From IMG/VR virus record IMGVR_UViG_3300006805_000023: a stretch of DNA of 64,000 nt. One strand, given 5' to 3'. This stretch comes from a virus (Duplodnaviria; Caudoviricetes). A program made the position numbers and the translations under genes. Under the pieces are notes generated by a model. It made no database searches and was not told the origin of the DNA. It saw only the letters and a program-made list of their open reading frames with translations. Shown here in pieces: positions 15,295-64,000 of this stretch (position 1 is its first letter; each line of letters starts with the position of its first letter).

Positions 15295-15298
15295 AGTT

Positions 15299-16426: not shown

Positions 16427-16469
16427 CGTTTGGTGTTCGCCTTAGAAAACAAACTCTACCTATTGGAGA

Positions 16470-16742: not shown

Positions 16743-16760
16743 TTTCTTGCTGTCAACCCT

Positions 16761-17651: not shown

Positions 17652-17712
17652 AAATGGCCGAGTCCCGCACGCTTCCTTGTTGACACGAAACCGGGCTGCG
17701 TACATCTCAATC

Positions 17713-17835: not shown

Positions 17836-17836
17836 C

Positions 17837-18133
17837 ATGCAAGACCTAGACGCTAAATGCCGCGAGATCCTCAAAGAGGAGCTAAAAAGACTGCTCGATG
17901 AGCACCGTGAGGTCCTTGATTCACTGCCTGATCGGTATCTCGAAGAACTAACCCTGTTGCGCACACTGAGCACAGTGTCGCTCACTGAAGCTCTCAAGTT
18001 TGACTTTGGGGATGCTGCTGGGCTGGCGTTCGTGTTGCAGCACGGAGGGCACGATTTTCCGGCGCTCCAGTTCATCACCAGACTAGACAAAGCGGTTGGT
18101 AGGCGGTTGACGGAGCTGATAGAGAAGCTCTAG
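17837..18133 (+). CDS. hypothetical protein
   Basis: 98-aa helical ORF in operon. Confidence 0.55.
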   Translation: MQDLDAKCREILKEELKRLLDEHREVLDSLPDRYLEELTLLRTLSTVSLTEALKFDFGDAAGLAFVLQHGGHDFPALQFITRLDKAVGRRLTELIEKL

Positions 18134-18142
18134 GTATAAGCA

Positions 18143-43935: not shown

Positions 43936-45003
43936 TCAGACGATCATGTTGCTCAAGTCCCCAAGAGCCACCGATGAGCCGGTCCGGTAGGACTCAACTT
44001 CCGTCTCTTGGGGGGCCACCTGAACCAAATGGCCGTCGAACCACTTGTCGATCCAGCCAATAGGGTTGGTCTTCTGTCCGAAAATAGCTGGCAGGCCGAT
44101 GCTCTGGAGGCGGAGGTCGGTGATGAACTTGTTGAAGCCGATCATGCGTGCTTCATCCAGGTTTGCAATTGGGCCTTCTGAGAAGAGGTACTTGGACCAT
44201 TCGATTTCCTCCTGAGCCGCCACCTCAAACATCTCGATGGCGAGCGGCTTGCACTCCTCCCAGACATCCATGAACCCCTCGCGTGGGTCGGTCCTCATAG
44301 CGTTGAGGATTGTCGAGGTGATCTCGACGTGCACGTTTTCGTCGCGGCAGATCTCACGGACGATTTTGGCGTTGCCTTCCATCTTGGCACGCGGTGGCTC
44401 AGCCAGGGCGAACGCGCAGGCAAAGGAGCCGTAGAAGCGGACGCCTTCGAGGATCTGAGTGCTCAGCAGGGTCAAAAGGATCTGCTTGCGCGGGTCGTCA
44501 CCCTCAAAGGCGATCAGGCGGTCGAACTCGGCTTTGACGGCGGCACCGCGCTTGATGATCTCCGGGTTTGTCAGGGCGTCGTCGAAGATCTTTCCAGCGT
44601 CCGGCGTGGCGTTCTGCAGCAGATAGGTGTAAGAGTAGCTGTGGAGGTTCTCGCAGAAGATCCAGTAGTTGAACGCTGCCTCCATTTCGGTCAGCGACAC
44701 GTAGGGCATCAGGGAACTCACACCACGCGTGATCACGGTGTCCATGGCGGTCTGATACTGCAGGTTCAGAGTGAACACGCGGCGTTCCTGTGGGTTCAGG
44801 CGCTCAAAATCGGGACGGTCCTTGGTGAGATCCATGCGCTCCGGACGCCAGAAGAAGTTCATCTGTTTCTTGAACAGCTCAAGAAACTCCGGGCGTTGGG
44901 GCCGATCATAACGGTGGAGACCCAGCGGGGCTCCCAAGAACATAGGTTGTCCGCTACAGTCGGTGGCTGTGTCATCGAATACGGTGCGTTTGGGAAGGAT
45001 CAT
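43936..45003 (-). CDS. nrdB: class I ribonucleotide reductase beta subunit
   Basis: FFWRPE, CENLHSYSY, ILEGVRFYGSF, RDENVH, APQETE di-metal/tyrosyl motifs. Confidence 0.95.
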   Translation of the reverse strand: MILPKRTVFDDTATDCSGQPMFLGAPLGLHRYDRPQRPEFLELFKKQMNFFWRPERMDLTKDRPDFERLNPQERRVFTLNLQYQTAMDTVITRGVSSLMPYVSLTEMEAAFNYWIFCENLHSYSYTYLLQNATPDAGKIFDDALTNPEIIKRGAAVKAEFDRLIAFEGDDPRKQILLTLLSTQILEGVRFYGSFACAFALAEPPRAKMEGNAKIVREICRDENVHVEITSTILNAMRTDPREGFMDVWEECKPLAIEMFEVAAQEEIEWSKYLFSEGPIANLDEARMIGFNKFITDLRLQSIGLPAIFGQKTNPIGWIDKWFDGHLVQVAPQETEVESYRTGSSVALGDLSNMIV

Positions 45004-45039
45004 GGATCGTGCGTTATAGTGGGATTGTTACGGGAGAAA

Positions 45040-48000: not shown

Positions 48001-48321
48001 GTCTTGCACCAGATACTTCTCCATCCACCACACGATAGCAGCATAGGTGTAGCCGAGGTCGCGGGTGTGGTCGATGGCCTGCTCGGCCTCGTCCAGCTCA
48101 GCTTCCGAGTAGAGGGCGAGAGCCTGATCGTAGCGATGGGCGCTCAGACCCTGGTGCAGGAAGTTCTTCAGAGAAGGTGCAATGGTTCCGTCCCCTCCCC
48201 ACACCTCTCGGCGCAGGGCAAGGTTCAGCAACAGGGACGCCTGATACTGGGTGTCTGGGTTTTCCGGCGAGATGGTATCTCCGGCAGATTTTGCGGCAAG
48301 CTTAAGTTCGTCGATGGTCAT
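45040..48321 (-). CDS. nrdA: class I ribonucleotide reductase alpha subunit with intein
   Basis: ETPQF, PTPVRAG, QFASC, SNL|C(intein)|CME, MPCESSS, KSLYY, C-terminal CAGGAC; likely start ATG 48321. Confidence 0.95.
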   Translation of the reverse strand: MTIDELKLAAKSAGDTISPENPDTQYQASLLLNLALRREVWGGDGTIAPSLKNFLHQGLSAHRYDQALALYSEAELDEAEQAIDHTRDLGYTYAAIVWWMEKYLVQDRASECHYETPQFAIMITALALYAVKPREVRMQLVRDLYHGVSTLVISQPTPVRAGLRTPLRQFASCTLAEMDDTLDSIGHTNLAMMKYGAARAGLGLNISRIRPQNSTVASGEVVSTGVIPFLKMFESTIKSTSQHGVRSASATVFFQFWHLEVESLVIAKSSTRGSHDRKVFKLDYCIVVNRMLYLRAIAGQDITLFNPNEVKDLYEAWGTPDFDRLYVECESRPGLTTKKISAKELVNLSLDVTLETGRLYYLHIENCNTHSSFSLPVRMSNLCLSGDTKLLTTSGYRPMRDLWLEQGCHELGSGADFNSSFVVNQHGVANSTPVVRTSESSEVFDLKLSGGLTVRATAHHEFELYDGGRARLFELAAGSRIRVSNTEFFGDFDDITYAELAGHLIGDGSVSTRNATSQHGIIKLWDDEIDELGPVFSSLLKQLFTDSSPTSELVPDYSFSNKHFDEAFGYWVASARSLPFGRRLLADGVTPGSKHRVPASIWRGTKTTVGAFLRGLYTADATIGCYGASASVTIAQVSKSLLREVQVLLSQFGIMSSLHPGVKAGKRLMKDGKGGMREYDGKATWRLMISSRDNLVLFADLIGVRQESKMASLREWLATHPGSNNSHNLYFREVESITYAGEEETFCLTEPENHQIIVNGIVTGQCMEVTHPTIPIQHIDGPGWIGLCILSALNATEITADNISRIAYTTVSHLDTLIDYQSYPVPAAEQFCKYWRSLGVGLTNLAAWLAREGLTYDHPDAPNRVAELMEMVQWHLLDASCKLAEELGAAPGFRDTKYAQGLLPIDHYKKDLDTIVTVPLKMDWEGLRERIKKHGLRNCTLSAQMPCESSSVVQNSTNGIDPVRSEVTFKKSKSGPVRVLVPQVLTREGTLGVYQHAFGMKDNFGYLSIAAAIQKFMCMSISTNLYYQYKRYPDGKIPLELILREQLFFFRIGGKSLYYIVSDDDDRQTVSEHVDTQAPFLEESGCAGGACTL
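46027..47175 (-). mobile_element. intein (383 aa) with LAGLIDADG endonuclease and C-terminal Gln
   Basis: starts CLSGDTKLLT, TAHHEF block B, AGHLIGDG and LRGLYTADA, ends NGIVTGQ followed by Cys+1 (NLC-E active-site motif). Confidence 0.93.
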
Positions 48322-48328
48322 GTGGGGA

Positions 48329-48589
48329 CTAGGCAGAAAGCCAGGAAAGGGCAAACTGAGTTAAAGTTACGTTAGCCCCTTCAATAACGACAAGACCGCA
48401 CTCTTTCAGCCACTCCACAGCGGGGGTGACTTGAGTGCTGCCATTATCTCGAATTGACTGGAGGAGCCGCCAGTCATCACCCGTGATCTCGACCAGATTG
48501 ACGTTGTCAGTGGCGGTCGTGATCATCCCAGTCTCGATCAGACGAGGCTCTTTAGTGCGTTGAGCAAGTTCTTCGCGAAGAGACAGCAT
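48329..48589 (-). CDS. small hypothetical protein
   Basis: 86-aa ORF between baseplate genes and nrdA. Confidence 0.45.
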   Translation of the reverse strand: MLSLREELAQRTKEPRLIETGMITTATDNVNLVEITGDDWRLLQSIRDNGSTQVTPAVEWLKECGLVVIEGANVTLTQFALSWLSA

Positions 48590-48591
48590 GG

Positions 48592-49353
48592 CTAGTCGGT
48601 GTGGATGATGATGGGTGGGAGACCTTGCCAGGCCGGGTTGGTGTCCGGCAGGATGATGCGGTACCTCGGGTAGTACTGAGTGCCGTTCACCATACCGTCA
48701 GCTGTAGTGATCCTGAAGTACACGGGCTGGGTCGCGTAGGTGGCAAGGTCGATCCCGTTGGCAGGGAACGGAAGGTGAGCTCCCTGACCGTTACCAGACC
48801 ATGGATCGTAGTAGAACCAGCGCTCAATGGAGGCAGCTGTCAGCCTGCTCAAAACGACTGCCGAGTACTGGCTGTCGGTGGCGAGTTGCAGCTCGATGTG
48901 CGCCGTCCCAGTGCCACAATCAGGCAGCTGGATGATGAGGTTGAAAATCGTGGAATCAGCGACCGTGACGGGTGCTGCGACCCGGTTCGGAGTCTGGTAC
49001 TGAGGCGGTGTATAAGGGGCTGGGCTTGGCTGGCGAGCAGGCACCTGAGAGGAGTTGACGATGACACCGGCGGGGCGCACTTCGCCCCATGACCAGTCTG
49101 GAATGCGCAGACGATCTCCGACCCGTAGCGAGAATGGGTCTGTGATTGTGTTATAGTCGAGGACGACCCACCAGCGCTCCGTCGTCCCGTAGTAGCGATA
49201 CGAGATCAGCTCAGGCCGGTCGATGTCGCCCTGAGTGATCACGTGGAGCTTTTCGGCGACCTTGCCGTAGGCAGGCGGGTGCCATTCAGCATACGCCACC
49301 ACACCATCCTGACTGAACGTCGGAGTTTGGAGGAAGCGTGAATCGGGGATCAT
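48592..49353 (-). CDS. LysM/T4 gp53-like baseplate wedge protein
   Basis: DRPELISYRYYGTTERWWVVLDYNTITDPFSLRVGDRLRIP. Confidence 0.8.
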   Translation of the reverse strand: MIPDSRFLQTPTFSQDGVVAYAEWHPPAYGKVAEKLHVITQGDIDRPELISYRYYGTTERWWVVLDYNTITDPFSLRVGDRLRIPDWSWGEVRPAGVIVNSSQVPARQPSPAPYTPPQYQTPNRVAAPVTVADSTIFNLIIQLPDCGTGTAHIELQLATDSQYSAVVLSRLTAASIERWFYYDPWSGNGQGAHLPFPANGIDLATYATQPVYFRITTADGMVNGTQYYPRYRIILPDTNPAWQGLPPIIIHTD

Positions 49354-50390
49354 TAGGTGTCGGGGCTGTTTGACAGCGAGATTTCGGCTTCGAACACCTG
49401 CTCTGGAGCATTGGCAAGGCTGCTCTTGACTTTTACTTTGCGCCCGTTGGGGCCGGTCGTCACCACAGTAACTGATGAAATAGACACTCGCGGTTCTGGA
49501 GCCACGGCATCACTCGTGTAGGCTGCTGCAATCTGGTCGAGGAGCGGGGTGGCCTGCTCGAAGACTAACTCAGGCAGTCTGCTGCCGATCCAAGGGCGCA
49601 TCAGGCGCTCCCCGATCCTGGTTTCGAGCAACATTGTGATGCTGGATTGCACCAAATCGGTGTCGTAGATGGTCGGGAAGGCCCAGGAAGAGTCCGTGGC
49701 ACCCTCCAGGCTGCTCACTTGGGCGTAGGAGCGGCGACGCATCTCGACGTTGGCCGTGGCGACGTCGTAATCGTCTTGAGCCGGTATCGTCAGGGTGAAC
49801 TTACCCGCCCCCTGATCCTTGACGACACGGCCAAAAGTGACCTTACGGCCAGGCTGCCAGATCGTGACCTCGGTTCCAGGCTCAAGAGAGATACCACCAG
49901 CCAGAATGACGTCGAACGACCCGCTTGCCAGCCTCGACGCCAAGGTCGTGGTGGTTGATGGGTAGAGGGTCTGAGTGGAAGCTGAAGGAGTGGACAGCTT
50001 GAGGATTGGAAGACCCAGACCACCCCAGCGGCGTAACACTATCTGCCTCTCTGCCTGAGGCATGATTCGCAAGGCGGCCACATCGTTCGGGGACGCAGCC
50101 GAGAAGGTGCCAGACGAGTTAACGCACCGAATCCTGATGAAAAATTCACCCGGAGTGTCGTAGGTGTGCTGGTACGCGAAGTCCCTGCCGACCGGCAAAA
50201 AGTCGCCAGTATCGACCGACCCATCGCCCCAGTCCACGATGAACTTCACGTAGGGGTCGTCATCCAGTCCGGAGGATACGGCGGCGACCTGGACCGATGC
50301 GATCATGAGGTGGTCCAGAATCCAGCGACCGCCGGACTCACTGGCGTTGCCGACAAGCAGCCTGCGGTTGACCAGCTTAGGCGCTGCCAT
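49353..50390 (-). CDS. PKD domain + gp25/GPW-like baseplate protein
   Basis: VDWGDGS...HTYDTPGEF (PKD); ITMLLETRIGERLMRPWIGSRLPELVFE...EPRV (gp25). Confidence 0.8.
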   Translation of the reverse strand: MAAPKLVNRRLLVGNASESGGRWILDHLMIASVQVAAVSSGLDDDPYVKFIVDWGDGSVDTGDFLPVGRDFAYQHTYDTPGEFFIRIRCVNSSGTFSAASPNDVAALRIMPQAERQIVLRRWGGLGLPILKLSTPSASTQTLYPSTTTTLASRLASGSFDVILAGGISLEPGTEVTIWQPGRKVTFGRVVKDQGAGKFTLTIPAQDDYDVATANVEMRRRSYAQVSSLEGATDSSWAFPTIYDTDLVQSSITMLLETRIGERLMRPWIGSRLPELVFEQATPLLDQIAAAYTSDAVAPEPRVSISSVTVVTTGPNGRKVKVKSSLANAPEQVFEAEISLSNSPDT

Positions 50391-52455
50391 GTCGCAGCCC
50401 CTTTCTCATTTTGACAGCTGGGTGGTTCTCAGCAAGAGACTTGGCCTCCGGCGGGGCTTCACCGGCGGCCTCGACCAGGTTGACTTCCAGTTCCCCACCC
50501 TTGGCGTAGGCCTCGACCAGCTTGGTTCGTGACTCGACCAGCTTGTCTGAGCCCGCAGTCCTGACAAGCGCTTTTGGGAGCGTCTCTGTGATGAGGGGCT
50601 CGCCGGTGTAGCTCTCGATCAGGCTGGTGCGTTTGGAGGTGTGCAGTTCGCTGATCGACTTGACTTCATTGATGATGCTCCTGACGAACTTGGCTCGGAG
50701 GAGCTTCTTGTCCTCGCTCTCCAGTGACTTCATCCTAGTGCTGAGGCCACGAATCAGGCTGTCCACCACCGACTGTTGTTTTGGAGTAGAGCGGCGGCGA
50801 CTTTCAAACAGGTTACCTGACTTCGCCCTAGCCCCAGACATAAGGGGAGCCTTCGGAGGAGCCCCATCAACCGGTTCAGCCTCGGAGCCGGAACCGTCTG
50901 GCATTTCGAGGTCGTCCATACCGTCTCCGGCCTCGTCCCCCATATCACCAAGGTCGTCCATCCCACCCATCCCGCCAAGGCCACCGCCTCCAGCGCCACC
51001 GGCGGAGTCCTGATCTGTGCCGAGAGCGCGGGCCACACTGGTGCCGAGCTTGGCGATGTCGATGAAATAGCGAGGCACCGAGAGGTACTCACGGAAAACA
51101 AGGTCGATGATCTCGCGGTTCGGGATCTCAAGCTGCTGGCACAACGTGGCGATTGTGTTGGCGAGGTTGGCCTGCTTCTCCAAGATAGCAACGTTGACCT
51201 CTTCCTCGATGGTCGAGATCCGGCTCATCTTGACCTTGATGTTGTAACGGGTCGGGTCCTTACCGGAAAGGGCGAGGTGGATCTGGCCCAGCCGGTAGAA
51301 GCCAGCCACTAGGATGCGCCGAATGTTGCGGACCATGCGGGCAAACCGGATGTCCTGACTGACCAACGAAGACGAGGCCAGACTGGAGCCTTCGTCGTCC
51401 TGACCCATATAGGTCTTGGGGATGCGAGCGCCACCGTAGAGCTGCTTGAGGAGCTGCTCAATGTCGGGGACGTCGGGGACGTCCTTGTCGCCGACCATGC
51501 TGGTGATCTCCGTCGTGTCGTCGTTGCCACGCTTTGGCAGGAACAACATCGACTCCAGGGCTGGAGGGTTGTAGCGTGACTCCATGTTCCCAGCCGACAG
51601 CATGACGTGCTGGTTGCGCAGCATGTGGGCGAACAGGTGAATCGACTCCATGGAGTCCGTGATGTCCTGCTCTTTGGTGTCGATGATGACGGCGTGCCGG
51701 GTAGGCATCGTGTGACGGCGGTAGAGCACCATCTGGTCGATGGACTGGTCGATCTTGCGCCACAGCGAGTAGAGCTTGTCCATGATCGCCACCCCATACT
51801 CGGTGTCGGACCGATACAGGCGGCGAAAGTGAATGAAGGACCACGGCGGAAAGATCTCCTTGTGGGAGGGGTAGAGGACATCCTCATCGCGAGGCTTCTG
51901 GCCGTCCCACAAAAACCCAATCAGACGGCGGGTGGTCTTGTCCCACAGACGCCGGACCGGCATCCGGGCTGAGTTGGCTGAGTCAGCACGTGGAATCCCG
52001 ACCAGTTGTTGAACCCCGTTGTCGTTGTACAGGATGCGTCGAAACTCGTTGCCAGTACCGGCGGCCCCCATGACAATGCTAGGCAGGTGCTCCTCGGAGT
52101 TGATCCGATCGAGCATTGCGTTGAGGTCCTTCTCGATCTCACCGTCGTCGCACTCATACCAGAGAGCGCGCCCCTTGTTGATGTCTGGCTGGCAGGTCTC
52201 CTCGGCGTACACCTCAAGCATTGGCCCGACCAGCTCAGAGTCGGACATCGCCAGCATGTCGCCATAGCGGGACTCTGGCGAGGCGTTGGAGTTCTGGCGC
52301 GCTAGGCCCTGGTCCTCATTGCCAGAACCGGCAATCTGGCTACCAACACCAGCCCTGCCCTTGACTTCATCCTTGGTAAGGTTAACGGGGGACGAGCTAT
52401 ACCAGCCAAACAGGCCTTGAAGCCCTGCCAGGATGCCTATCTTGGGAGTTTCCAT
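50377..52455 (-). CDS. portal protein (T4 gp20-like)
   Basis: LEVYAEE, FIHFRR, YGVAIMD, IDQMVLYR, DVPDIEQLLKQLYGGARIPK, LVSQDIRFARMVRNIR. Confidence 0.9.
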   Translation of the reverse strand: METPKIGILAGLQGLFGWYSSSPVNLTKDEVKGRAGVGSQIAGSGNEDQGLARQNSNASPESRYGDMLAMSDSELVGPMLEVYAEETCQPDINKGRALWYECDDGEIEKDLNAMLDRINSEEHLPSIVMGAAGTGNEFRRILYNDNGVQQLVGIPRADSANSARMPVRRLWDKTTRRLIGFLWDGQKPRDEDVLYPSHKEIFPPWSFIHFRRLYRSDTEYGVAIMDKLYSLWRKIDQSIDQMVLYRRHTMPTRHAVIIDTKEQDITDSMESIHLFAHMLRNQHVMLSAGNMESRYNPPALESMLFLPKRGNDDTTEITSMVGDKDVPDVPDIEQLLKQLYGGARIPKTYMGQDDEGSSLASSSLVSQDIRFARMVRNIRRILVAGFYRLGQIHLALSGKDPTRYNIKVKMSRISTIEEEVNVAILEKQANLANTIATLCQQLEIPNREIIDLVFREYLSVPRYFIDIAKLGTSVARALGTDQDSAGGAGGGGLGGMGGMDDLGDMGDEAGDGMDDLEMPDGSGSEAEPVDGAPPKAPLMSGARAKSGNLFESRRRSTPKQQSVVDSLIRGLSTRMKSLESEDKKLLRAKFVRSIINEVKSISELHTSKRTSLIESYTGEPLITETLPKALVRTAGSDKLVESRTKLVEAYAKGGELEVNLVEAAGEAPPEAKSLAENHPAVKMRKGLRHGSA

Positions 52456-52480
52456 CAGGAGTCAGTGCTGTAGAGAGGGG

Positions 52481-53086
52481 TTATTTGGCACGACGAGCTG
52501 TCACAGCCTCACGGTGGAGACGCATGAAGCTGCCACGACCGTAGCCAGCGGTGCGACATTCGGCCAGAGGGTTGCGGGCCTTAGGTTTCACGCTGGAAAG
52601 CTGCGGCTGCGGCGGCTCCTGAGGCTTCTCGATGGAACTTTTCCGGATGTCATCGGCCCGTGATTCAAGGTCGGCGTTCGGCAGATCAGCCACGGACTTG
52701 ATTCCAAGGAACTCAGCCAGCGGCTGGTCCCCGATCTCGTCCAGAAACATTGCGAAGGCCAGCTGGTTGGGCTCCCATTTGGCAACACCAAGCTGGCTGG
52801 ACTCGGTACCCTTGAACAGGGACATCAGGTCAGAGGTGAGACCCTGAGCATCCTTAGAATTGAGGTTGCCATCTTCACGGTACAGGTCGTACAACCTGAT
52901 GAAGATCTTGAGGGCCGTCTTGTTGGTCTTCAGGAAGTCCTTGAAACCAGACAGTTCGTCTGGCTCGGAGCTGGTAATGCTCGCCAGATCATCTTCTGGT
53001 TCAGGCGCTGCGGGTGTGTCCAGTTCAGAGCTGCCTGGAGCGTCAGCAGGCTCCAAGTCGTCGGTCAAGGTCTCGATTAGTCTCAT
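52481..53086 (-). CDS. putative head-associated protein
   Basis: 201 aa; starts MRLIETL; candidate late promoter upstream; adjacent to portal. Confidence 0.45.
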   Translation of the reverse strand: MRLIETLTDDLEPADAPGSSELDTPAAPEPEDDLASITSSEPDELSGFKDFLKTNKTALKIFIRLYDLYREDGNLNSKDAQGLTSDLMSLFKGTESSQLGVAKWEPNQLAFAMFLDEIGDQPLAEFLGIKSVADLPNADLESRADDIRKSSIEKPQEPPQPQLSSVKPKARNPLAECRTAGYGRGSFMRLHREAVTARRAK

Positions 53087-53101
53087 CGTGCTGATACCTA
53101 G

Positions 53102-54115
53102 TCAGTCATCCGCTGTCCTGTCGAGGCTCTGGCTGGACGCCACAAAACCGGCCATGAGATCATTCAAGTCAGGACCGTGGCGAGTAGCCGGAGGACGCTT
53201 CGGAGCATCTTCCTCCTCTGACTCTTCTGACTTCCACCAGTAAGCAGGTAGCACCTCAAGGTCTTGCTTGACTGCGTAGTCGCCTACCAGCTTGCGCAGA
53301 CGCCGGTCCCGGTCGGCCAGCGATACCGAGGAGGCCACGATGATGGCTCCGTTGACCTTCTCTGCGAACTCAACGTTGTTACTGACCAGCTGGAAGTGCA
53401 TATCCTCCTTGATGACCGTCCCGATCTTGTGTTGCTGCAGCCAGCCGTAGGTGGCCTCTTCGATCGCAGTAGCAGCGGCCTCAAACAACAGCTCACGCAG
53501 TGGTTTGGAGGAGGCAAGACGAGCCTTTTCGTAAGAAAGGACCTCCATGATCGGTTTGGGGCGCAGCATGGCCGACAGACATGGCGCGGTGCCTTCCGTC
53601 CAGGTCTCGTGAATGCTGGAGTAACCCTTGAAACGGCCTAGGTTAACCGAAGCGATCATCCACCACACTGAGGGCTTCATGGCCGCCGGGTCGGGAGGTC
53701 CGTAGCTCAGAGCACCCTCCAGCCACTGCACCTCACCGGACAAGATGTCCGACCGCATCATCCCAGCGAAGGTCTCGTGCGACGACCCGGCGTTGATGAT
53801 GAACCTGAGCTTGTCGCGCCATGTAGTCAGGTACTCCAGGCTCGACTCGGCGACCAAGTAGGAGTTGGCGAAGAATGGCGCTCGTGGTGGCTTGTTGAGT
53901 CCGCTCCCGGTGCGCAGCAGGTAGGCTGCCACTTGGTCTTCCAGGAACTCCTTGGCCGGTCCGAAGAAGGGCTCCAGTTTCTCGATCTCGATGAGGACCT
54001 CATCAGACGGCATCCACCCTCCATCGGTTGGAGGAACCCCAACTACACGGGTATATTGCTTAGTGAGTATTTCGCGTGCCTGGATGGCGATCATCATGTC
54101 AGAACTAGAAACCAA
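53102..54115 (-). CDS. hypothetical protein
   Basis: 337-aa ORF in minus-strand run. Confidence 0.6.
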   Translation of the reverse strand: MVSSSDMMIAIQAREILTKQYTRVVGVPPTDGGWMPSDEVLIEIEKLEPFFGPAKEFLEDQVAAYLLRTGSGLNKPPRAPFFANSYLVAESSLEYLTTWRDKLRFIINAGSSHETFAGMMRSDILSGEVQWLEGALSYGPPDPAAMKPSVWWMIASVNLGRFKGYSSIHETWTEGTAPCLSAMLRPKPIMEVLSYEKARLASSKPLRELLFEAAATAIEEATYGWLQQHKIGTVIKEDMHFQLVSNNVEFAEKVNGAIIVASSVSLADRDRRLRKLVGDYAVKQDLEVLPAYWWKSEESEEEDAPKRPPATRHGPDLNDLMAGFVASSQSLDRTADD

Positions 54116-54121
54116 GTCTGA

Positions 54122-54343
54122 CTAGTGATCACCGGGCGGAGCCACCATGGTGAGCTTGCCAACCACGGTGACCTTGATAATCTCCCTGAGCGACGGGTGC
54201 CGATCGCGGGCTGCCCTCCTGGCATTGGCCTCAGCAGCCGCTAGGTTTGGAGCAGAGCCCTCCCAGCGCCATAGCGTCTTGAACAGACCCCCTCTGGTGA
54301 GGTTGTCGAACCCTAGTTCAAGATCTGCCAAGTACTCGGCCAT
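54122..54343 (-). CDS. small hypothetical protein
   Basis: 73 aa; CTAAGTAT motif 5 nt upstream of ATG. Confidence 0.55.
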   Translation of the reverse strand: MAEYLADLELGFDNLTRGGLFKTLWRWEGSAPNLAAAEANARRAARDRHPSLREIIKVTVVGKLTMVAPPGDH

Positions 54344-54759
54344 ATCTCATACTTAGTGTGGCCGTCGAACGTGGAGCCGATACTGGTTCTACGTGTGCGC
54401 GCACGCGCTCGCTGGCCGCGCTGGCTCGCGTGCGCGATTCCCTCTTAAACGTGATTTCTGTTATAGCTTTAGCTTTGAAACGGAGTGAACAAGAAGATGA
54501 TGGTAGAACAGAAGATCACCTCTCTCCCCCTCCACGGCCCACGGAGTGGGGCGGAAACCCAACTTGTTGGGTTGTTAAGAAGGGACATAACCTTAAAAAG
54601 TAAACGCGAGCGCGAGCGGCCCGCTGGCTGGCTCCGGCATGTGACTCGCCTAGCGGCGAGGACGGCCCCCACTCCGTGGGGCCGGGTGGCGGTTGGATGG
54701 AGACGATGCAATGTGGCAGCAGGCTGCACTGTTTGGTTTTCTTGGCTGGTCCCCACACC
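54344..54759. other. about 400-bp divergent intergenic region with several inverted repeats
   Basis: IRs 54398-54407/54427-54436, 54538-54551/54667-54680, 54556-54563/54566-54573; AT-rich patch around 54445-54480. Confidence 0.6.
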
Positions 54760-57700
54760 ATGAGCAAAGTCCTAAAGCAGCCCGTTATGTCCGGGCCTGA
54801 GCATCCACCATCCGAGGAGCATCCGGCCTGCATTAAGTGCGCCTTGTTCAAGACTGCCGAGACCCCGTTCTGGGACTCCTTCTACGAGCAGGACGGCAAG
54901 ATCAAGATGGGGATGCCCGATTACCCGGTGAACGGTGGCTGGGTGATGGTAGTCGGCGACGGGATCTCCAAGGAAATGGACGAGGAGGAGAAGCCGACCG
55001 ACCTTAGCGTGCTGATCAAGCACCTACGGAGCATGGGTCTCAACAACCGCGTTGTCTATGTGCCAGGCACGCTCTGTGTGGCCCCGGACGGTACCGAGGG
55101 ACGCAAACGCAACCTCAAGAAGCCAGAGATCAGCCGCTGCTTCGGTCACCATATCCGGTGGCGGGTGGACTACCTGAAGAACATCGGCCTGTGTGGGCTG
55201 ATTGCCGCCGGTCCCGTGGCGTCCTATAGTCTGCTGGGCCACATGGACTCCAAGCAGTGGGGGCAGCGCAAGCCCTACGTCCACGACCACGACATCCCGG
55301 TGATCGGGACGATTGACGTGGAGGCGACTCTGGTTGCTCCGACCAAGCGCCCCCTGCTGATTACGCAGCTCCAGTTTGCTGTGGACTCCTTGGAAGGGCG
55401 CATCGCAGCTACTGACCGTCACCAGGTCGCCTACACAGTGGCGTGGTCTCCTGAAGAGTTCGATGCTTGGTTTGAAGGTCTGGACCTGCGCAAGCCGCTA
55501 ATGTGGGACGTGGAATCCAGTGGGGTCAAGCCCTTCGCAGCTGGTTACCGTCTGGGCGTGTTTTCCTTCTACCACCCGTCCCGCGACAAGGTTCTGATCG
55601 TGGCGACTCCGGACTACAAGCATGCTCACGACAAGTATTCAGACTGGGTGGATGCTGCCCTGGAACGCTTGGAACAGGGCTCCGAAGAGGATGTGCCGTG
55701 CAACAGTTTCGACCAGCAGTGGCGCAAGATGGAGCCAAAGGTCAAGAAGGTGATCGAGGCTGAGGAGTACAAGAAGCTGGGTCACAATCAGCAGTTCGAT
55801 GATGTGTCGGTGTATGCCAGGTACCGCTGGCAGATGGGCGGCTACTTCAACGACACGATGATCATGAACTACCTGTTGACGCCGGACGAAAAGCGCAACG
55901 GTTTGGAGGCTCTGGTCCAGAAGTGGTATCCGGAGGCCGACGGTTACTGGGACGCTCTGGACGAATATAAGAGCCAGTACAACCCAGAGTCTTACATGGA
56001 GATTCCGTGGGACGTCTTGGTGCCTTACGCGGCCTACGACACCTGGGTGCTGTGGCCGGTGTTCATGGCGATCCTCAACGAGTTCAAGAGGCTGGATGAC
56101 GAAGAGTATGGCGGCCTGTTCGTGAGGCGCACCGAGGGTGGAGTGATCCAGCCCACCTACTCGCTCCTTGAGTATGCGATGTTTGGCCGGAAGATTCACC
56201 AACGGATGTGCACCGAGCTGGAGAAGACCGGAGCACCGATCGACACCGAGCTGCTGCCACGCATTTACGACGAGTACAACAGGCAGCGTGATGCTTTGGC
56301 CGTCAAGCTCAACTCCCATCAGGACGTCGTAGCCTTCTGCTCCGAGGTCCTAGGACCACAGGCCAAGAAGGGAACCCCGAACTTCAAGCTGTGGAAGGCA
56401 GGCGAGATCCCAGAGCTCAACTGGGGCTCGCCGGTCCAGCTCAAGACCTTCTTCCTTGACTACCTCGGAATGAGCACTGACCGCCGGACCAAGACCGGCG
56501 GTGTCAGCCTGGATGAAACGGCCCTGCTGGGTATGATGACGGAGCACGAGATCGTCAAGATCCTGCTGGACTGGCGCGGAGCCGACAAGTTCGTGACCTC
56601 CTTCCTCGATCCGCTCATCGAAAAGCGCGTGCTGTGGCCGGACGGACTCACCCACGCCTCCTTCAGGCCGTCCGGCACCGAGACCAGCCGTCTCGCAGTG
56701 TCCAGCCCGAACGTCCAGGCCATCCCGCGTGACGGCTTGGTCAAGAAGCTCTACTGCCCACGCGACCGTGCCAAGGGCTGGCTGGTGACACGCGATTATT
56801 CAGGCCTCGAAGTCCGCGTGATGGCTTGTATGGCGTCCGATGAATCGCTGATTCACACCTTCATGACGGGTGGTGACCCCCACTTCAACACGCAGCGCCA
56901 CTTCTTCCACGACAAAGCTGACAAGAAGAATAAGACCCAGCGCTCGATTTGCAAGCAGGCCCTGTTCGGGCGAATTTACGGCCAGACCGCCAAGGGTCTG
57001 TATGAACTACTGCTCGGAAACGGTGTGATGAACCCCGACACCGGCCTCCCGATCACTATGGAGGAAGCCGAGGCCTTCAACCAGATGCTGGACGACGCCT
57101 ATCCGGCCATCGCCAGCTGGGTCAACGCCTCTCACCGCTTCTCGATCGCTACCAAATACGTGGCGTCGCCCTTCGGATTCGTCCGCCCTCTGGACGCCCT
57201 GCAGGACCACGCCACCTTCCTGACCCGGAAGCGTGAAAAGGGTTGCTGGGACAATCAGCGCTTCCGCAAGCTCTCCAGCGCTATCTCGAAGGACCTCAGG
57301 CGTGCTCAGAACTGTGTGGATGCTGAGACCGAGTGTCTTACTGCCGAAGGCTGGAAAACCTATGATAAGCTGGCAGCCGGTGAGCTAATCATGACGAAAA
57401 ACCCGGATACCGGAATCCTGGAGTGGCACCCGATCCTGAAGATGAACGTCTTCGAGGAATCGTCCACGCCGGTATGGGAAGTCGAGACCAACGCCTTCTC
57501 GGCCTGCGTTACCCCGAACCACCGCTGGCTGGTGACGACCCGCAAGCGTGGCGGCAAGGGTAAGCCAACCCAGTATGTCGATGAAATCTTGACGATGGAG
57601 CAGATGGTAGCCTCGAAGGGCTTCTAGTCTCTGCACCGGACTGGCGAGTGGGAAGGTGCAGACGCCCCTTATTCAGACCGGTTCCTGCAGCTCATCGGGT

Positions 57701-58791
57701 GGTATGTGACCGACTCCAGCATCAAGCGTGGAGTGGATGGGAGGTCTTCTACAATTGAAGTCGGTCAGGACTCTTCCAAAAAAGACAACTGCGAGCAGAT
57801 TCGAAGCATCCTTGGCGACTGGGCTATCAGCGAACGCCCGGAAGGGACTTTCTTGCGCTGGCGTGTGAATGTTGCTATCTCAGAGGAGGTCATCAGGCTG
57901 CTACCGCGCCGGAAGCTCACCAACGAGTTCATCAGGTCACTCTCGCAGTTTCAAGCAAGACTCGTGATGAGTGAAATGCTCAAAGGAGATGGCAGCCGTG
58001 GGCGTGTCCTCTATGCTGAGGACCAGGAGGAGGTTGACTTATTTCAGACTCTGGCTTTCATAGCTGGCATCGCCACCAACGCTGGTTGGCGTGACATGTC
58101 GAAGTACCCGCCACGTGCCAGCAAAAAGCTTAAGCGTCCGATCATTTCGAAGAAGGGTGGCTACTGGGAAGTTTCGGTTCTCAGCCGTAAGACAGCGCAG
58201 GTCCTGAAGCCACAGGTCAAGATTATCGACGACAAGCGCTTGGTGTGGTGCCCGACCGTGCAGAACAGCACCTGGGTGGCCCGTCGCAAGGGCTGCGTTT
58301 ACGTGACAGGGAACACCGCGATCCAGTCGGCTGCCGGAGACCTCACGGTGTTCGCTGGTTGGCAGATCCGCAACGTCATGAAGGACGTTGGGCTGGACTC
58401 CGAGATCGTCAACATCGTTCACGATGATATTTGGATCAACGTCAACAGCGATGATCAGGTGCCGATGACCACCGCTGTGATGCGTCAGGTCATGGACAAC
58501 TCACCGGACTGGCTCCCCGACATGCTCCCAGGCTATGACCCGTCTTGGATCACGGTGCCGATCATCGGCGAGTGCGACGTCGGGATCAACGCCAAGGACG
58601 CCTTTGGCGCTAAAGAACCTGATTGGGGCGTGGCCGACTCCCGTCTGAAGCTCAAGGTGCCAGGCGTCGTCATCAACAAGATCAACGGGCGCGACCTTGC
58701 GACGGAATGCGAGCCAGACTACGTCGATTTCTTGGATAACTCAGATCTTCTCAGGTCAGTACTCAACGTACAACGTAGCCAGTTCAATTAA
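54760..58791 (+). CDS. polA: family A DNA polymerase (UDG-like N-terminal domain, 3'-5' exonuclease, intein) interrupted by one in-frame TAG at 57625-57627
   Basis: WDVESS, GHNQQFD, YAAYD exo motifs; TGTETSRL, RDYSGLEVR (motif A), KQALFGRIYG (B), AQN|TAIQS, IVHDD (C); track ORFs 54676..57627 and 57706..58791 are in the same frame. Confidence 0.9.
57313..58314 (+). mobile_element. intein (334 codons) with degenerate LAGLIDADG domain and internal TAG
   Basis: starts CVDAETECLTAEGW, TPNHRW block B, LIGWYVTDS and MLKGDGS, ends VWCPTVQNSTWVARRKGCVYVTGN followed by Thr+1. Confidence 0.9.
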
Positions 58792-58803
58792 ACACCCTCT
58801 CTC

Positions 58804-59019
58804 ATGTACTTTCGCCGCATCAAGGAAGCCCTTCTCCTCACCTACTTCGCCACCAACTCAACCGGTAACTTTGTAGCTGCTCTCAAGAAGCTCGACGAAC
58901 GAAACGAGGCATCCTGGCAGGTCGCCACCGGCACTGATCGCAGCCCAGTCATCCGAGAGGAAGGACTCACCATGGAACAGGCCTTCGAGGCCGCTGAGCG
59001 TATCGAAGTCATGGGATAA
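58804..59019 (+). CDS. small hypothetical protein
   Basis: 71-aa ORF. Confidence 0.5.
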   Translation: MYFRRIKEALLLTYFATNSTGNFVAALKKLDERNEASWQVATGTDRSPVIREEGLTMEQAFEAAERIEVMG

Positions 59020-59020
59020 C

Positions 59021-59049
59021 TTGACAGGAGCGCGCTCCTGTTGTATGTT
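59021..59049 (+). promoter_or_regulatory. sigma70-type promoter containing an 18-bp perfect palindrome
   Basis: TTGACA-17 nt-TATGTT; ACAGGAGCGCGCTCCTGT at 59024-59041. Confidence 0.65.
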
Positions 59050-59078
59050 ATCTAGTCGTTTCCCACCACACTCCCCCT

Positions 59079-59750
59079 ATGTCAAAACCAACGCCCGCAT
59101 CCGCCCTGTCAGCCTTCGCCAAGAAGGAACCTGCCAAGAAAGTCACCACCCTCACTCTCGATGAGGTCGAGCTGCACAAGCAGGTCCTCGAATACGCCAA
59201 GGCTAAGAAGGCTATGGACGAAGCCGAAGCCGCCCTCAAGAAGTTCAAGCCGGAACTGCGCGACGCCGCCTTGGCGCTCTACGCTGATCACAACGTCGCT
59301 ACCAGTGTTTTCGCTGGCAATGTGGCCTTGCAGTCGCCGTTCGCCGACCTGCGCGTCAACTTCAACAACGGCTACCGGTCCGCTCTGACCAACGAGGCGA
59401 TCGCAGACGCCGAGGCCGCCATCGGCAAGCCTCTCAAGCAGCTGTTCACGACCGCCACGACCACTCTGGTGGACTTCGACAAGCTCCCCAAGGAGCTGCG
59501 CGCCAAGTTCGAGGAAGAGTTCCTGCACCTGTTTGAGAAGTATGACGCCGTCGGAGCCGTCACTCTCAAGTCGGTCAACACCGTCGTGGAAGACTTCAAT
59601 CAGAAGGTGCTCAAGGTCCTCACCGCTGACGAGATCGTGGTGCTCGACCAGTCCCTGCCGATCCCAGCCACCTTCACGGTGACCCGCCTGGAGTCCCCCG
59701 AATTCATCACCGCAGCTCTCCTGAAGCTGCAACAGGGGGCTCAGGCATGA
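59079..59750 (+). CDS. hypothetical protein
   Basis: 223 aa with very strong codon bias. Confidence 0.65.
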   Translation: MSKPTPASALSAFAKKEPAKKVTTLTLDEVELHKQVLEYAKAKKAMDEAEAALKKFKPELRDAALALYADHNVATSVFAGNVALQSPFADLRVNFNNGYRSALTNEAIADAEAAIGKPLKQLFTTATTTLVDFDKLPKELRAKFEEEFLHLFEKYDAVGAVTLKSVNTVVEDFNQKVLKVLTADEIVVLDQSLPIPATFTVTRLESPEFITAALLKLQQGAQA

Positions 59751-61771
59751 GCCCATACTCCTCCCCAACACCAGTTGCGAACGTGTCGGCCTTGGTCGAT
59801 GAGATCGAGATCACGAAGCTCACCGAGGAACTCGAAGCGGCAGCCGCAGCCTACTACAAGGATGGCAGCTCCACGATGACCGACGCAGAGTTCGACCTCA
59901 AAGTCGAAGAGCTGCGCGAGCGCGACCCCGAAAGCGACTTCCTGAAGAAGGTCGGCGCTCCTCCGAGCAGCAACCTCCCTAAGATCGCCCACAAACTCCC
60001 AATGCTGAGCCTCAACAAGGCGACCACGCAGAAGGACTTGAAGGACTGGATCGCCCGCCTCCCAGGCCACTGCCCGGATGAAGATGGCGTCGCGGTTCAG
60101 TTCAAGATGGATGGTGCCTCGGTGGAGCTGTTCTATGACAAAGGCATGCTCGTCCATGGCTCTACCCGTGGCGACGGCGTGACCGGCGAAGATGTCACGG
60201 TTGCGGTTCGCAAGGCTGTTGGCGTCCCCGTCAAAGTCTTGTTCACCGGGCCTCTCTGGGTGCGCGGTGAAGTCACCCTGCCAATCTCCAAATGGGCTGA
60301 GGTCGATCCTGAAATGAAGACCAACCCACGTAACGTCGGGACTGGCATCCTCAGTCGTGAGGATGGGTCGGATGCTGAGAAGCTACGTTTCACAGCATTC
60401 TCTTGCAACGGCAAGGAGATCGACACCCTTAACCACCTTCTTGAAAGCGACGTCCTAGCGTTCCTCAACCTGCAGGGATTCCATATTGCTGAGACCGCGT
60501 TCGTGAAGCTCGATCTGGAAGCCATCGAGCGCGCCATCGAACACATCCGTGAGCGTCGCCCGACCCTTGAATACGCGATCGACGGAGCCGTCATCAAGTT
60601 CAACAGTCTGCAGGCGCAGCACGCCCTCGGAGTGTCGAGCGGACGCCCCAAAGGCCAGATCGCCTTCAAATGGCCATCCGACACCATCGAGACCGTTCTG
60701 ACCGGCGTCACCCTTACAGTAGGCCACACCGGCTACATCGCCCCGACGGCCCAGCTTGCTCCGGTGCAGCTTATGGGCGTGACGGTCCAAAACGCCCTGC
60801 TCAACAACTGGGACGAGATCGCCCGCCTCGGAGTTGCCATCGGTGACACCGTGCTGGTCGAACGCTCTGGCGAAATCATCCCGAAGATCATCGGAGTCAT
60901 CAAGCGCCCTGAGAACCGTCATCCCATCCTGGAGCCTACTAGCTGCCCAGAATGTGGCGGCCCATGCGCACGCTCCACCAGCACTACTGGCGAGTCCGGC
61001 GTCCTGACGGTCTGCCTGAGCAACGACTGCCCATCACGCCTCCGTGGTGTGGTCAAGCGTTGGGTCAAGTCCCTCGATATCTTGGGGATTGGCGACGACG
61101 TTCTTGACTCGATGTTCAAGAGCGGACTGGTGCGAGACCGCATCAGCCTCTACACGGTGCGTCTGGATGATCTGTCAGCCATCCGGGTCGGCAACGGCGT
61201 CCTCGGCCTCAAACGTGCTGATTCAATCATGCATGAGATCAAAAAGACTCATGGTGCGCTGAGCATCAGCCAGTTCATCGGCTCGCTCGGCGCTCCTTAT
61301 CTCGGCGTCCGTAAGGCAGCTATCATGCAGGGACTCGCTAAGGGTGAGCTCAACAAGCTCTCTGACTGGGTCGGTGGCAAGCTGCTCGAAATCGGGTCAC
61401 GGGTCCAGGCCGGTGGCACCGCACCAGTGATGCACGCCTTCTTCCAACGCAATCTGGAAGAGATCAACCGCCTCGCCGTGGTCTGCCTGAAGGCTGAGAG
61501 CGACTTCGTGGAACCTGCTCCTGAGCTTGCCTCGCTGCCGGAGGGTAAGAAGCGCCACACGTTCCTGCTCACCGGTAAGTTCGACCAGAAGAAGTCCCAC
61601 TACCACGACCTCATCACCGCTGCCGGTCACCTCTTCGAAGAGGACTTCAAAGCCGGAGTCACCCACCTCGTGCAGGCTGATCCGGAGTCCGCCAGCGCAA
61701 AAACCAAGAAGGCTCAAAAGGCTGGCATCCCAGTGATCGGGATTGACAATCTGATGTCCTTGATTTCGTAA
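59747..61771 (+). CDS. ligA: NAD-dependent DNA ligase
   Basis: YYKDG..MTDAEFD, KMDG adenylation motif, RGEV, NPRN, DGAVIK, CPEC..C..C Zn finger, HhH repeats, C-terminal BRCT. Confidence 0.95.
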   Translation: MSPYSSPTPVANVSALVDEIEITKLTEELEAAAAAYYKDGSSTMTDAEFDLKVEELRERDPESDFLKKVGAPPSSNLPKIAHKLPMLSLNKATTQKDLKDWIARLPGHCPDEDGVAVQFKMDGASVELFYDKGMLVHGSTRGDGVTGEDVTVAVRKAVGVPVKVLFTGPLWVRGEVTLPISKWAEVDPEMKTNPRNVGTGILSREDGSDAEKLRFTAFSCNGKEIDTLNHLLESDVLAFLNLQGFHIAETAFVKLDLEAIERAIEHIRERRPTLEYAIDGAVIKFNSLQAQHALGVSSGRPKGQIAFKWPSDTIETVLTGVTLTVGHTGYIAPTAQLAPVQLMGVTVQNALLNNWDEIARLGVAIGDTVLVERSGEIIPKIIGVIKRPENRHPILEPTSCPECGGPCARSTSTTGESGVLTVCLSNDCPSRLRGVVKRWVKSLDILGIGDDVLDSMFKSGLVRDRISLYTVRLDDLSAIRVGNGVLGLKRADSIMHEIKKTHGALSISQFIGSLGAPYLGVRKAAIMQGLAKGELNKLSDWVGGKLLEIGSRVQAGGTAPVMHAFFQRNLEEINRLAVVCLKAESDFVEPAPELASLPEGKKRHTFLLTGKFDQKKSHYHDLITAAGHLFEEDFKAGVTHLVQADPESASAKTKKAQKAGIPVIGIDNLMSLIS

Positions 61772-61778
61772 AACCACT

Positions 61779-62690
61779 ATGTCGATCCTAAAAAGCCTCT
61801 TCGGAGGCTCATCCAAGCCGAAGCCAGTAGCCATCAAGCCAGAAGACCGTCTCAAGCGTGAGCTTGAGCGTGTCAACGCCGCACCCCCAGAAGGTGACGC
61901 CGAAATGAACGATCAGGAGCGCGCTCTGATGTGCTTCTCCGCCCAAGAGAAGCGTGAGATGTTCGAGGCCCGTTGCATCCTGCAGCTCCTCCCATCTATG
62001 AGCGTCACCGCGATCACTGAGGTGGTTCAGGTCATGGAGAGGGCTGGCAAGAAGGTCACCAAGCAATACGTCCATCAGGTCATCTACCCGAAAGACCCTG
62101 AGCGTCTGTTCGCTTCCCATAGCCCTGGGTACAAGAAGGTCTGGTGCACCTTCCGTGATGCCATCCACGACAAAATCCGGATGCCGAACGAACAGGAGCT
62201 GGCAGCGATCAGCGCCCTCAAGGAAGCACCAGTCACTCGTCGTGAGATCCTCAAGGAGATCAAGCTCTCGGAGCCTGCTGCCAAGAAGATCAGCGAGGCC
62301 TGCGCGATGCGTGACGCTTACCGGGCGACCGTAACAGCCATTGCTCAGCTGCGCGATGGTCGCGAGGTCCTGCTGCTCGGTGTCAACGCTTCCAGGCTGA
62401 AGTGGATCAAGGTCAAGCTGCGCAAGCTCGGCATCAAGTACTCACTCCGGAAGGATGACTCGGTTTATCCGAACCGCTGCTTGATCACGCCATCGACCAT
62501 CCCGGTCAAGGACGAGGTGTTCTCGGTTGAGAAGTGGCTGGCGGAGAGCATCGGCGTTGGTATCCGGTCAGTCGGTGCCGATCCGCTGATGCGCCCCAAC
62601 CTTGTAGGTCCGAAGGCCGAGGAGACCCTGTTCGGGAAGACCTTCAAGGTCTATCACGTGCTCGGCAACGCGAAGTGCGCGCAGGTATAG
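61779..62690 (+). CDS. hypothetical protein
   Basis: 303-aa ORF following ligA. Confidence 0.6.
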   Translation: MSILKSLFGGSSKPKPVAIKPEDRLKRELERVNAAPPEGDAEMNDQERALMCFSAQEKREMFEARCILQLLPSMSVTAITEVVQVMERAGKKVTKQYVHQVIYPKDPERLFASHSPGYKKVWCTFRDAIHDKIRMPNEQELAAISALKEAPVTRREILKEIKLSEPAAKKISEACAMRDAYRATVTAIAQLRDGREVLLLGVNASRLKWIKVKLRKLGIKYSLRKDDSVYPNRCLITPSTIPVKDEVFSVEKWLAESIGVGIRSVGADPLMRPNLVGPKAEETLFGKTFKVYHVLGNAKCAQV

Positions 62691-63706
62691 CACCCCTTTT
62701 TGACCTCGTGTACCCTGACGACCGCGATGACATTCGCGGCCTCAGGGTAAAACTTTTGGTCCATGGTGATTCTGACAGGCATCTTCACACCACAGTTGGC
62801 ATCACCGAACAAGTTCACGACCACGTAACTGCGACGCCATGAAGCAAATGAGTTGCTAGTAGAGGCAAAGACCTTCAGAGCCTCTTGCTTTAGGCAAGCA
62901 CGAACCTCACGTGATTTCGACTCTGATAGTGGGGTACGACCGCGCTCTTCCCCTGCAGCGAGGCCACCGGGGGAGGTCAGGAGTTCGAGCTTTTCGGGGT
63001 CAAATCCGAGGGACGTCTCTTCACCGCCTCCCTCCGCAAATGACAGCGTGGCCGACCCTTCTACCGAGTCAACTACCTGATCATAGTCTGGTCGTATGCT
63101 GTCACGCACGGTTCGCGGCGTGCAAAATGACACCTCGTCCCCATTGGACGAGAACAGGCAATAGCCGCCCTCACCGCGTGAATTCACAGCCCTCTTCGTC
63201 AGGTGCCTTCTGATGAACTCGTGAGCAGACCAGCCTGGACAATGCAAGATCCTGAACTCGTCCGGGGTTTGAGTAGTCTCGATGGTACCAGGCGTCATCC
63301 CTGACTCCTGAATGACGCGGGAAGCTGTCTCCGATACCTCGCCTTCGTAGTGTTTCATCAAGGACGACGCCAGCATGACGGCTCGCTTTTCGATCGTCAC
63401 GAACTCAAACCGCATCGTGGTCTTGCGCCTTCTGATCCGCGATCCGATCACGATGTGACGTTGTGTAGGCAGGGTGACGGATAGCGCCGTGTCCTTGATC
63501 GAAAACTCGATCTCCCCACCGGCTTTGATCAGCTGCGAGTAGTTGGCGAGCCAGGCTTCCGACTGCTGCCCCATCGGTTTGCTCACGTGCCACGCCATCG
63601 ACCAGTCCCCATCAGCCCGGTCCACGAACCTGAGAGACTCAAACGAGTCGCTGAGTGCGTCATCCTTGTAACGCACACACCAGGAGGTCTTTTGTTGGAA
63701 TGCCAT
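62654..63706 (-). CDS. putative baseplate hub (T4 gp27/late control D-like) protein
   Basis: 350 aa; HYEGEVSE, IETT, CPGWSAHEFIRRHL...GYCLF pattern; TAATG-coupled to upstream Ser-tailed gene. Confidence 0.45.
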   Translation of the reverse strand: MAFQQKTSWCVRYKDDALSDSFESLRFVDRADGDWSMAWHVSKPMGQQSEAWLANYSQLIKAGGEIEFSIKDTALSVTLPTQRHIVIGSRIRRRKTTMRFEFVTIEKRAVMLASSLMKHYEGEVSETASRVIQESGMTPGTIETTQTPDEFRILHCPGWSAHEFIRRHLTKRAVNSRGEGGYCLFSSNGDEVSFCTPRTVRDSIRPDYDQVVDSVEGSATLSFAEGGGEETSLGFDPEKLELLTSPGGLAAGEERGRTPLSESKSREVRACLKQEALKVFASTSNSFASWRRSYVVVNLFGDANCGVKMPVRITMDQKFYPEAANVIAVVRVHEVKKGCYTCAHFALPST

Positions 63707-64000
63707 TAGGACGAGCTAGACGACGAAGAAGAGCTGTTGACCGACGAAGAGGACGAAGAGGACGAGGAGGAACTGTTGACCGAGCTGCTGGAGCTGGACG
63801 AACTGTTGCGCGACGAGGATGATGAAGAGGAACTGTTGACCGAGCTGCTGGAGCTGGACGAGCTGTTGACCGACGAGGATGAGGACGAGCTGGAGTTGGA
63901 AGAGTTGGACGAACGAGAGGACGCGGAGCTGGCTGAGGACTCCGAGGAATAAAGCTCTGCGATGCTATCGAGGTGTGGCACCGCGATGGCCCAGGCCGAC
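63706..64000 (-). CDS. 3' end of a gene truncated by the window edge, ending in an 80-aa poly-Ser tail
   Basis: frame is open to the window end (…SAWAIAVPHLDSIAELY) then Ser tract 63948-63709. Confidence 0.8.
   Translation of the reverse strand, partial: SAWAIAVPHLDSIAELYSSESSASSASSRSSNSSNSSSSSSSSVNSSSSSSSSVNSSSSSSSSRNSSSSSSSSVNSSSSSSSSSSSVNSSSSSSSSS

Follow-up and report, generated by a model that had tools for sequence, protein, structure and literature searches.

An in-frame amber codon interrupts the intein in the gene for the family-A DNA polymerase of a large phage with a contractile tail (IMG/VR record IMGVR_UViG_3300006805_000023; Caudoviricetes). We studied the gene in a 64,000-nucleotide stretch of the viral genome (hereafter, the window). 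Comparison with sister assemblies indicates that the stop is a private, derived, single-base C-to-A change at position 57626 in what otherwise appears to be a normal, contiguous, cis-splicing intein, and not an evolved split intein. The reading that we favor, to which we assign a probability of roughly 0.55, is that the TAG is a real and very young mutation that is probably leaky through suppression, or else is carried by complementation or is simply defective.

The polymerase gene, intein included, spans positions 54760-58791 (features are on the + strand unless noted otherwise), from an ATG at 54760 to a TAA at 58789-58791. This ATG is the start chosen by database gene calls, and both the window's own N-terminal product (P0001) and a full-length database protein (P0041, described below) begin with MSKVLKQ. 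An open reading frame (ORF) at 54676..57627 closes with the TAG at 57625-57627, after which the frame reopens, continues for 387 further codons, and ends at the TAA. The original prediction was thus right that the same frame runs on past the TAG without a frameshift. A frameshift beyond the stop was considered and rejected, as the +1 frame, inspected by eye, reaches a TGA soon after.

Near-identical sequences from other assemblies do not have the stop. A cluster built at 90% identity around the N-terminal product of the window contained P0001 itself (955 residues), P0042 (361 residues), which is the window's own C-terminal ORF, and P0041, one unbroken protein of 1343 residues that is encoded on two 185,594-bp contigs (one from JGI/IMG and one from ENA). 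P0041 is identical to the read-through translation of the window at 1342 of 1343 positions, with a serine in place of the stop. At the DNA level, we compared window positions 44760-64000 (the full span of this comparison) with positions 1-19241 of the ENA contig (L013; ERZ27275068, k141_133944, 185,594 bp). The two agree without gaps at 19,240 of 19,241 bases, and the only mismatch is at 57626, where L013 has C and the window has A (TCG versus TAG). Exact matching of the tail sheath, 936-residue, 372-residue, ribonucleotide reductase, and P0001 products did not extend the sister contig leftward. A single uninterrupted frame through extein, intein, and extein, which fails in the window, therefore holds in P0041 and L013. 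A further, independent observation comes from X1, a 468-nucleotide Logan contig from a 2025 wastewater run, which lies on 57248-57715, crosses the extein-intein junction, and likewise has C at 57626. Its other differences from the window, at 57279 and 57294, are both third-position and synonymous, and we take it on account of these two extra changes to come from a slightly different strain. The original prediction had called for inspection of relatives and had suggested TAC as the underlying sense codon. The inspection found the intein to be uninterrupted in relatives and the TAG allele to be a minority variant, an outcome that the original prediction had named in advance as refuting, and the sense codon proved to be not TAC but TCG (Ser) in the sister assemblies and the wastewater contig alike.

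The intein (57313..58314; 334 codons, with a nested LAGLIDADG homing endonuclease) was delimited with the help of intein-less relatives, homologous inteins, AlphaFold, and Foldseek. It begins with Cys1 (TGT at 57313) and ends with Asn334 (AAC at 58312-58314), and the +1 residue is a threonine (58315-58317). Relatives P0002-P0007, which are single proteins of ~1000 residues (47-87% identity), lack exactly the segment 57313-58314, and when that segment is removed from the window sequence they align with it gap-free over LRRAQ(N)/(N)T.IQSAAGD, where the slash marks the junction. Because intein-less relatives align across the junction, the insertion point is fixed exactly. The nearest polymerase relatives (73-87% identity) carry no intein at this site. 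The flanking exteins were assigned by Pfam and by alignment to intein-less relatives. The N-extein (54760..57312; 851 residues; PF01612 and PF00476) comprises the 3'-5' exonuclease domain and the polymerase domain to just past motif B, and the C-extein (58315..58791; 158 residues plus the TAA) contains motif C, NIVHDD, with VHDD at 58417-58428. According to Pfam, the first of the two ORFs holds the exonuclease and polymerase domains, and the second contributes the terminal part of the polymerase domain.

The splicing residues C1, T67, H70, and N334 are present and are invariant across the 16 members of the intein family, and the +1 threonine is present as well. Block B (57511..57528) reads T67-P-N-H70-R-W72, its Thr, His, and Trp being invariant in the family (alignments A2 and A3); block F (58246..58254; W312-C313-P314) is invariant in the family alignment, as is the end of block G (58306..58314; T332-G333-N334), in which the penultimate residue is Gly, not His, family-wide. 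The first LAGLIDADG helix (57676..57714; residues 122-134, with LQLIGWYVTD) is an AlphaFold helix with G129, W130, and T133 invariant, and the second helix and motif (57946..57993; residues 212-227, with MSEMLKGDGS) includes a modeled helix at 212-225 and the conserved residues G225 and G227. An AlphaFold model of the intein, built with the 16 family members in the alignment (mean predicted local distance difference test score, 91; predicted template modeling score, 0.89), has the predicted HINT fold together with a two-motif LAGLIDADG endonuclease fold. The best Foldseek matches of the model were the endonuclease-bearing inteins TliVMA, PhoVMA, PI-SceI, and PI-PfuI (E values of 3e-13 to 1e-9); its endonuclease portion also matched I-DmoI.

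The TAG occupies intein codon 105, counted from the TGT at 57313, and is preceded by 104 sense intein codons, just as had been predicted. It does not fall exactly after the N-terminal splicing part, as had also been claimed, but just ahead of a strand that is conserved in the family (x-L/I-H-R-T-G, residues 105-110; an AlphaFold strand at 105-108) and 17 residues before the start of the first LAGLIDADG helix. Homologous inteins have F, M, H, D, or N at the position of the stop, and since the residue varies in the family, position 105 is a tolerant site. The LAGLIDADG domain, the intein C-terminus, and the 158-residue C-extein with motif C all lie downstream of the stop, in agreement with the original prediction, and all are intact: both LAGLIDADG motifs, the WCP block, and TGN with its following Thr are in place, and the C-extein is ~87% identical to intein-less relatives. 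The intact state of the downstream sequence fits a very recent event.

More distant homologs also lack the interruption. We aligned 15 homologous inteins (28-57% identity), an alignment that the original prediction had proposed, and all 15 are unbroken. Inteins inserted at this polymerase site (P0024, P0025, P0026, P0027, P0028, and others) show 30-57% identity. Among them, the inteins of the metagenomic PolA proteins P0024, P0025, P0027, and P0028 and of DNA polymerase 1 of Phage DP SC_2_H4_2017 (MT121960) share the insertion point, with an N-extein ending in RRxQN, an intein of the form C...TGN, and a C-extein beginning with T, S, or C followed by IQS. Like the window intein, they are ~335-350 residues long, have two LAGLIDADG motifs, and are alignable over their full length (33-57% identity), and they have in common with it the invariant residues C1, T67, H70, W72, W312-C313-P314, and T332-G333-N334. 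All of them are uninterrupted, whereas the window copy alone has TAG at codon 105. The site in the family-A polymerase thus defined holds a new intein allele family.

What would the amber allele do? The usual allele of the population would direct the synthesis of one 1343-residue precursor, and splicing would convert it into a polymerase of ~1009 residues. From the TAG allele, translation would normally stop after 955 residues, leaving a product that should keep the exonuclease domain and, because it lacks motif C, should be unable to polymerize. A full-length precursor would arise from this allele only upon read-through of the UAG codon. The single-base change at 57626 is itself documented by the assembled sequences. 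We infer that the mutation is real and very young, as opposed to a mistake in the consensus, and that the allele is probably rescued by read-through, possibly by way of a putative UAG-reading tRNA. That the amber allele is both real and viable through such a tRNA of the phage's own, in a large phage with the standard code, is a more demanding proposal that we judge to be rather unlikely, and simple incidental read-through of the polymerase TAG by a putative phage suppressor tRNA is possible. If such a tRNA exists, the UAG would be decoded in part, and any residue put in at so tolerant a position should permit splicing, which would account for a nonsense allele of a seemingly essential gene reaching the assembled consensus; the stop would still not count as a selected feature, since otherwise identical genomes lack it. 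If the demanding proposal were true, the allele would represent the first step in the build-up of in-frame TAGs in the essential genes of a suppressor-bearing phage and an "ambiguous intermediate" toward stop-codon reassignment, with the side effect of making polymerase output dependent on a tRNA.

Several considerations weigh against a real mutation. In a replication gene that appears to be essential, a lethal nonsense codon would not be expected to reach the assembled consensus unless something rescues it, co-infecting wild-type phage carry it along, or it is an error. The base directly after the stop is a T, and in Escherichia coli such a context favors termination. Also to be counted here is the depth of the X1 contig, which is only 3.7.

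The chief competing explanation is that the TAG stems from a mistake in the consensus, sequencing, or assembly of one contig, in which case the phage really has TCG and nothing biological happens at the site. This explanation, which we regard as possible though on balance unlikely, draws on the fact that the TAG is a singleton set against three observations of TCG in DNA that is otherwise identical or 99% identical, on its being the only difference in 19.2 kb, and on the expected lethality of a nonsense codon in a replicative polymerase. One-base discrepancies do exist in these data, as a second one, at 11536, illustrates (see below). Speaking against an error, the rest of the window contains no frameshifts or other broken genes; with 96% of the window covered by ORFs under the standard code, a generally error-prone assembly is argued against. 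Moreover, single-base consensus errors are rare in a 218-kb contig, and only ~4% of them would make a stop (3.9% of the possible substitutions in the polymerase gene do so). Both of the leading explanations, young mutation and consensus error, are ordinary ones. Both had also been listed by the original prediction, as recent nonsense mutation and sequencing error, alongside more exotic options, and jointly they gain support from the near-identical assemblies and X1, which read TCG.

The phage population appears to be nearly clonal across samples, inasmuch as the assemblies differ at only about one base per 10-19 kb. A 10-kb contig from another JGI sample (L014) equals window positions 1583-11662 with one mismatch. 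This sole difference, at 11536 (G in the window, T in L014), is at a second codon position in the ORF at 11349-11954, 126 bases from the end of L014; errors are common near contig ends, and the difference may be one of them. At least three other samples (JGI 3300025896, ENA ERZ27275068, and the 2025 wastewater run) contain sequences near-identical to the window (99% to 99.99%), and a 2017 freshwater run yielded an identical 250-nucleotide piece. Raw reads were less informative for the stop codon: run X11 had no reads on the stretch, and runs X8 and X3 cover only 57685-57957, which is outside the codon. None of the sequencing runs listed for the stretch was of RNA.

Next in order of survival is the idea of selected read-through, whereby the amber codon would have been newly recruited as a target of the phage's own putative UAG-reading tRNA and would serve as a timing or dosage switch for the polymerase, whose synthesis would have to await expression of the tRNA. 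In its favor, the stop stands at a variable, tolerant position of the intein, such that any inserted residue should be accepted. Against it, neither the sister assemblies, nor the X1 strain, nor any of the homologous inteins has the stop, and for this reason we see no conservation and no sign of selection. The polymerase TAG is the only genuine in-frame TAG in the 64 kb, and TAG is a common terminator there, ending 17 of the 70 ORFs, including those for the tail sheath and one helicase. No tRNA genes were found within the 64-kb window. We consider selected read-through improbable, and the suggestion that it acts as a programmed, conserved polymerase switch is not borne out, given that L013, P0041, and X1 all have TCG. 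Code-wide reassignment of TAG can be rejected outright, as the standard code leaves the long ORFs of the window whole, read-through would meaningfully lengthen the polymerase gene only, and TAG ends the 17 ORFs just mentioned.

Other candidate read-through sites in the window were likewise rejected. A putative second gene with an in-frame TAG, 54122-54343/53102-54115 (- strand), corresponds to two genes in different frames in a relative with ~80% DNA identity (L002), and homology starts only at a downstream Met. The ORFs at 48592-49353 and 48329-48589, considered as another such pair, are not in the same frame, and beyond the terminal TAG of the ORF at 17837-18133 a TAA comes two codons on.

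Least probable of the developed alternatives is the one on which the original prediction had dwelt, namely, that the gene holds a nascent, naturally split intein. The 955-residue N-fragment (the N-extein plus intein residues 1-104) and a separately started C-fragment (the endonuclease, the C-part of the intein, and the C-extein) would in that case splice in trans. Were this a split intein at birth in a phage polymerase, it would be notable for intein evolution and for protein-ligation tools, but the evidence is against it, and we consider it very improbable indeed. It is true that the break is close to where inteins are canonically split and endonucleases inserted and matches the ~100-residue size of natural N-halves (for example, 98 residues in AceL NrdHF [PMC7891396]), that all catalytic residues are intact on both sides of the stop, and that phages are the main setting of split inteins and fractured genes (PMC2677866). 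The C-fragment, however, would have no evident way of being made. No in-frame ATG follows the stop before 57967, and there is no convincing ribosome-binding site after it. The first canonical in-frame start is a GTG at 57706..57708 (intein codon 132), which gene callers have used as the start of the 361-residue ORF P0042; its upstream region has a weak Shine-Dalgarno-like match (-5.3 kcal/mol). The original prediction was correct in stating that no ATG lies between the stop and this GTG and that a start there would cut the first LAGLIDADG helix, for the GTG is inside the helix at 122-134. A restart at the GTG would also drop 27 residues (105-131), among them the conserved L/I-H-R-T-G strand. 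The endonuclease, moreover, is fused in frame to the C-part and is not free-standing, and the split is absent from every relative compared, whether the otherwise identical sister genomes or the 15 homologous inteins. A search with the 361-residue C-terminal ORF found, among proteins of 199-632 residues, none with the architecture of endonuclease, intein C-part, and polymerase tail. Taken together, the missing start signal, the fused endonuclease, the loss of 27 residues upon restart, and the want of any split relative leave the notion of a nascent split intein without support.

As to start signals in general, most of the predicted genes of the window have no upstream Shine-Dalgarno-like sequence, and the median energy of the duplex with the anti-Shine-Dalgarno sequence is about -1 kcal/mol. 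Start signals in this phage or its host are thus not of the classical type, which weakens any argument that relies solely on whether a Shine-Dalgarno sequence is there.

The intein family bears a likeness to class 3 inteins, which are marked by a Trp-Cys-Thr (WCT) triplet, Trp(B:12)-Cys(F:4)-Thr(G:5) (PMC7891396), and are defined by the absence of an N-terminal Cys or Ser nucleophile. The triplet is invariant in the window intein family as W72, C313, and T332. Cys1 is invariant in all 16 sequences too, and the family is therefore not class 3 by the operational definition. A tblastn search linked the window intein to mycobacteriophage inteins. With the class 3 DnaB intein of mycobacteriophage Bethlehem (PMC2807308) it has the WCT triplet in common, and it differs in its invariant Cys1. 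The combination of Cys1, the WCT triplet, and a penultimate Gly is unusual, and makes either cysteine a candidate for the nucleophile that initiates splicing.

Homologs of the intein are not confined to polymerases. P0031 and P0033 (765 residues; Pfam PF00091, tubulin/FtsZ; one of them named cell division GTPase FtsZ by JGI) contain homologous inteins that align over their full length (32-37% identity), and the presence of such inteins in both polymerase and tubulin/FtsZ proteins implies that the intein lineage has moved between unrelated host genes. In P0006 (1120 residues), a more distant polymerase relative with 47% identity, a small intein of another kind (Pfam Hint_2) occupies another site, after the conserved PSGTETSRLST motif (alignment A1, columns 684-810). 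Elsewhere in the window, the gene for the large subunit of ribonucleotide reductase (45040-48354, - strand; an ORF of 1104 residues) contains an intact LAGLIDADG intein that is also present in the sister contig, and a third intact intein occurs in a 936-residue protein encoded at 22545-25355 (+ strand) among the virion genes, where Hint and LAGLIDADG_3 domains span residues ~400-813. In L002, the ribonucleotide reductase gene (1423-3591; 722 residues) is intein-less, as is the polymerase. Because L002 is without both, the ribonucleotide reductase and polymerase inteins look like gains in the sub-lineage of the window or losses in that of L002.

The window comes from a contig of 218,247 bp (JGI/IMG) and encodes, in addition to the polymerase, a tail sheath, a T4-like portal, two helicases, ribonucleotide reductase, and an NAD-dependent ligase. 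Megablast of the window against a phage collection gave no match, and the polymerases of the nearest cultured phages are only 23-28% identical. A polymerase-based search for the locus returned only distant relatives (22-28% identity) from viral contigs and none from genome contigs. Finally, an exact-pattern scan of viral, metagenome, and genome contig collections, with NNN at the position of the stop codon, found no match.

Whichever of the two ordinary explanations holds, the locus is a clean example of how comparison of sister assemblies can resolve an apparently broken gene, and it is instructive to set it beside other systems in which genes are divided or interrupted. In the "fractured genes" of phages (Dassa et al. 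2009, PMC2677866) and in the split class 3 AceL NrdHF intein (Hoffmann et al. 2020, PMC7891396), an enzyme of replication or nucleotide metabolism contains an intein that is cut near the point of endonuclease insertion, with an N-half of ~100 residues, much as is seen here. Those systems consist of two or three genes with starts of their own, a free-standing endonuclease gene between the halves, and a conserved arrangement, whereas the window has one frame, one stop, no start signal, and an endonuclease fused to the C-part. Stop-codon-recoded phages with suppressor tRNAs (Borges et al., bioRxiv 10.1101/2021.08.26.457843; Peters et al. 2022, PMC9523058) similarly have TAG in frame within phage genes, as here, but their in-frame TAGs are spread over many genes and TAG is avoided as a terminator. 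The window, in contrast, has one in-frame TAG, which is absent from sister genomes, and uses TAG to end 17 of its 70 ORFs. A parallel to the young amber mutation that we favor is provided by the classical amber mutants of phage DNA polymerase genes, in which a single-base change creates a UAG codon in the replicative polymerase and function depends on suppression, as we propose here. The classical mutants grow only with a suppressor tRNA. The present allele differs from them in coming from an environmental assembly, in lying at a tolerant position internal to an intein, and in that any suppressor would be encoded by the phage.

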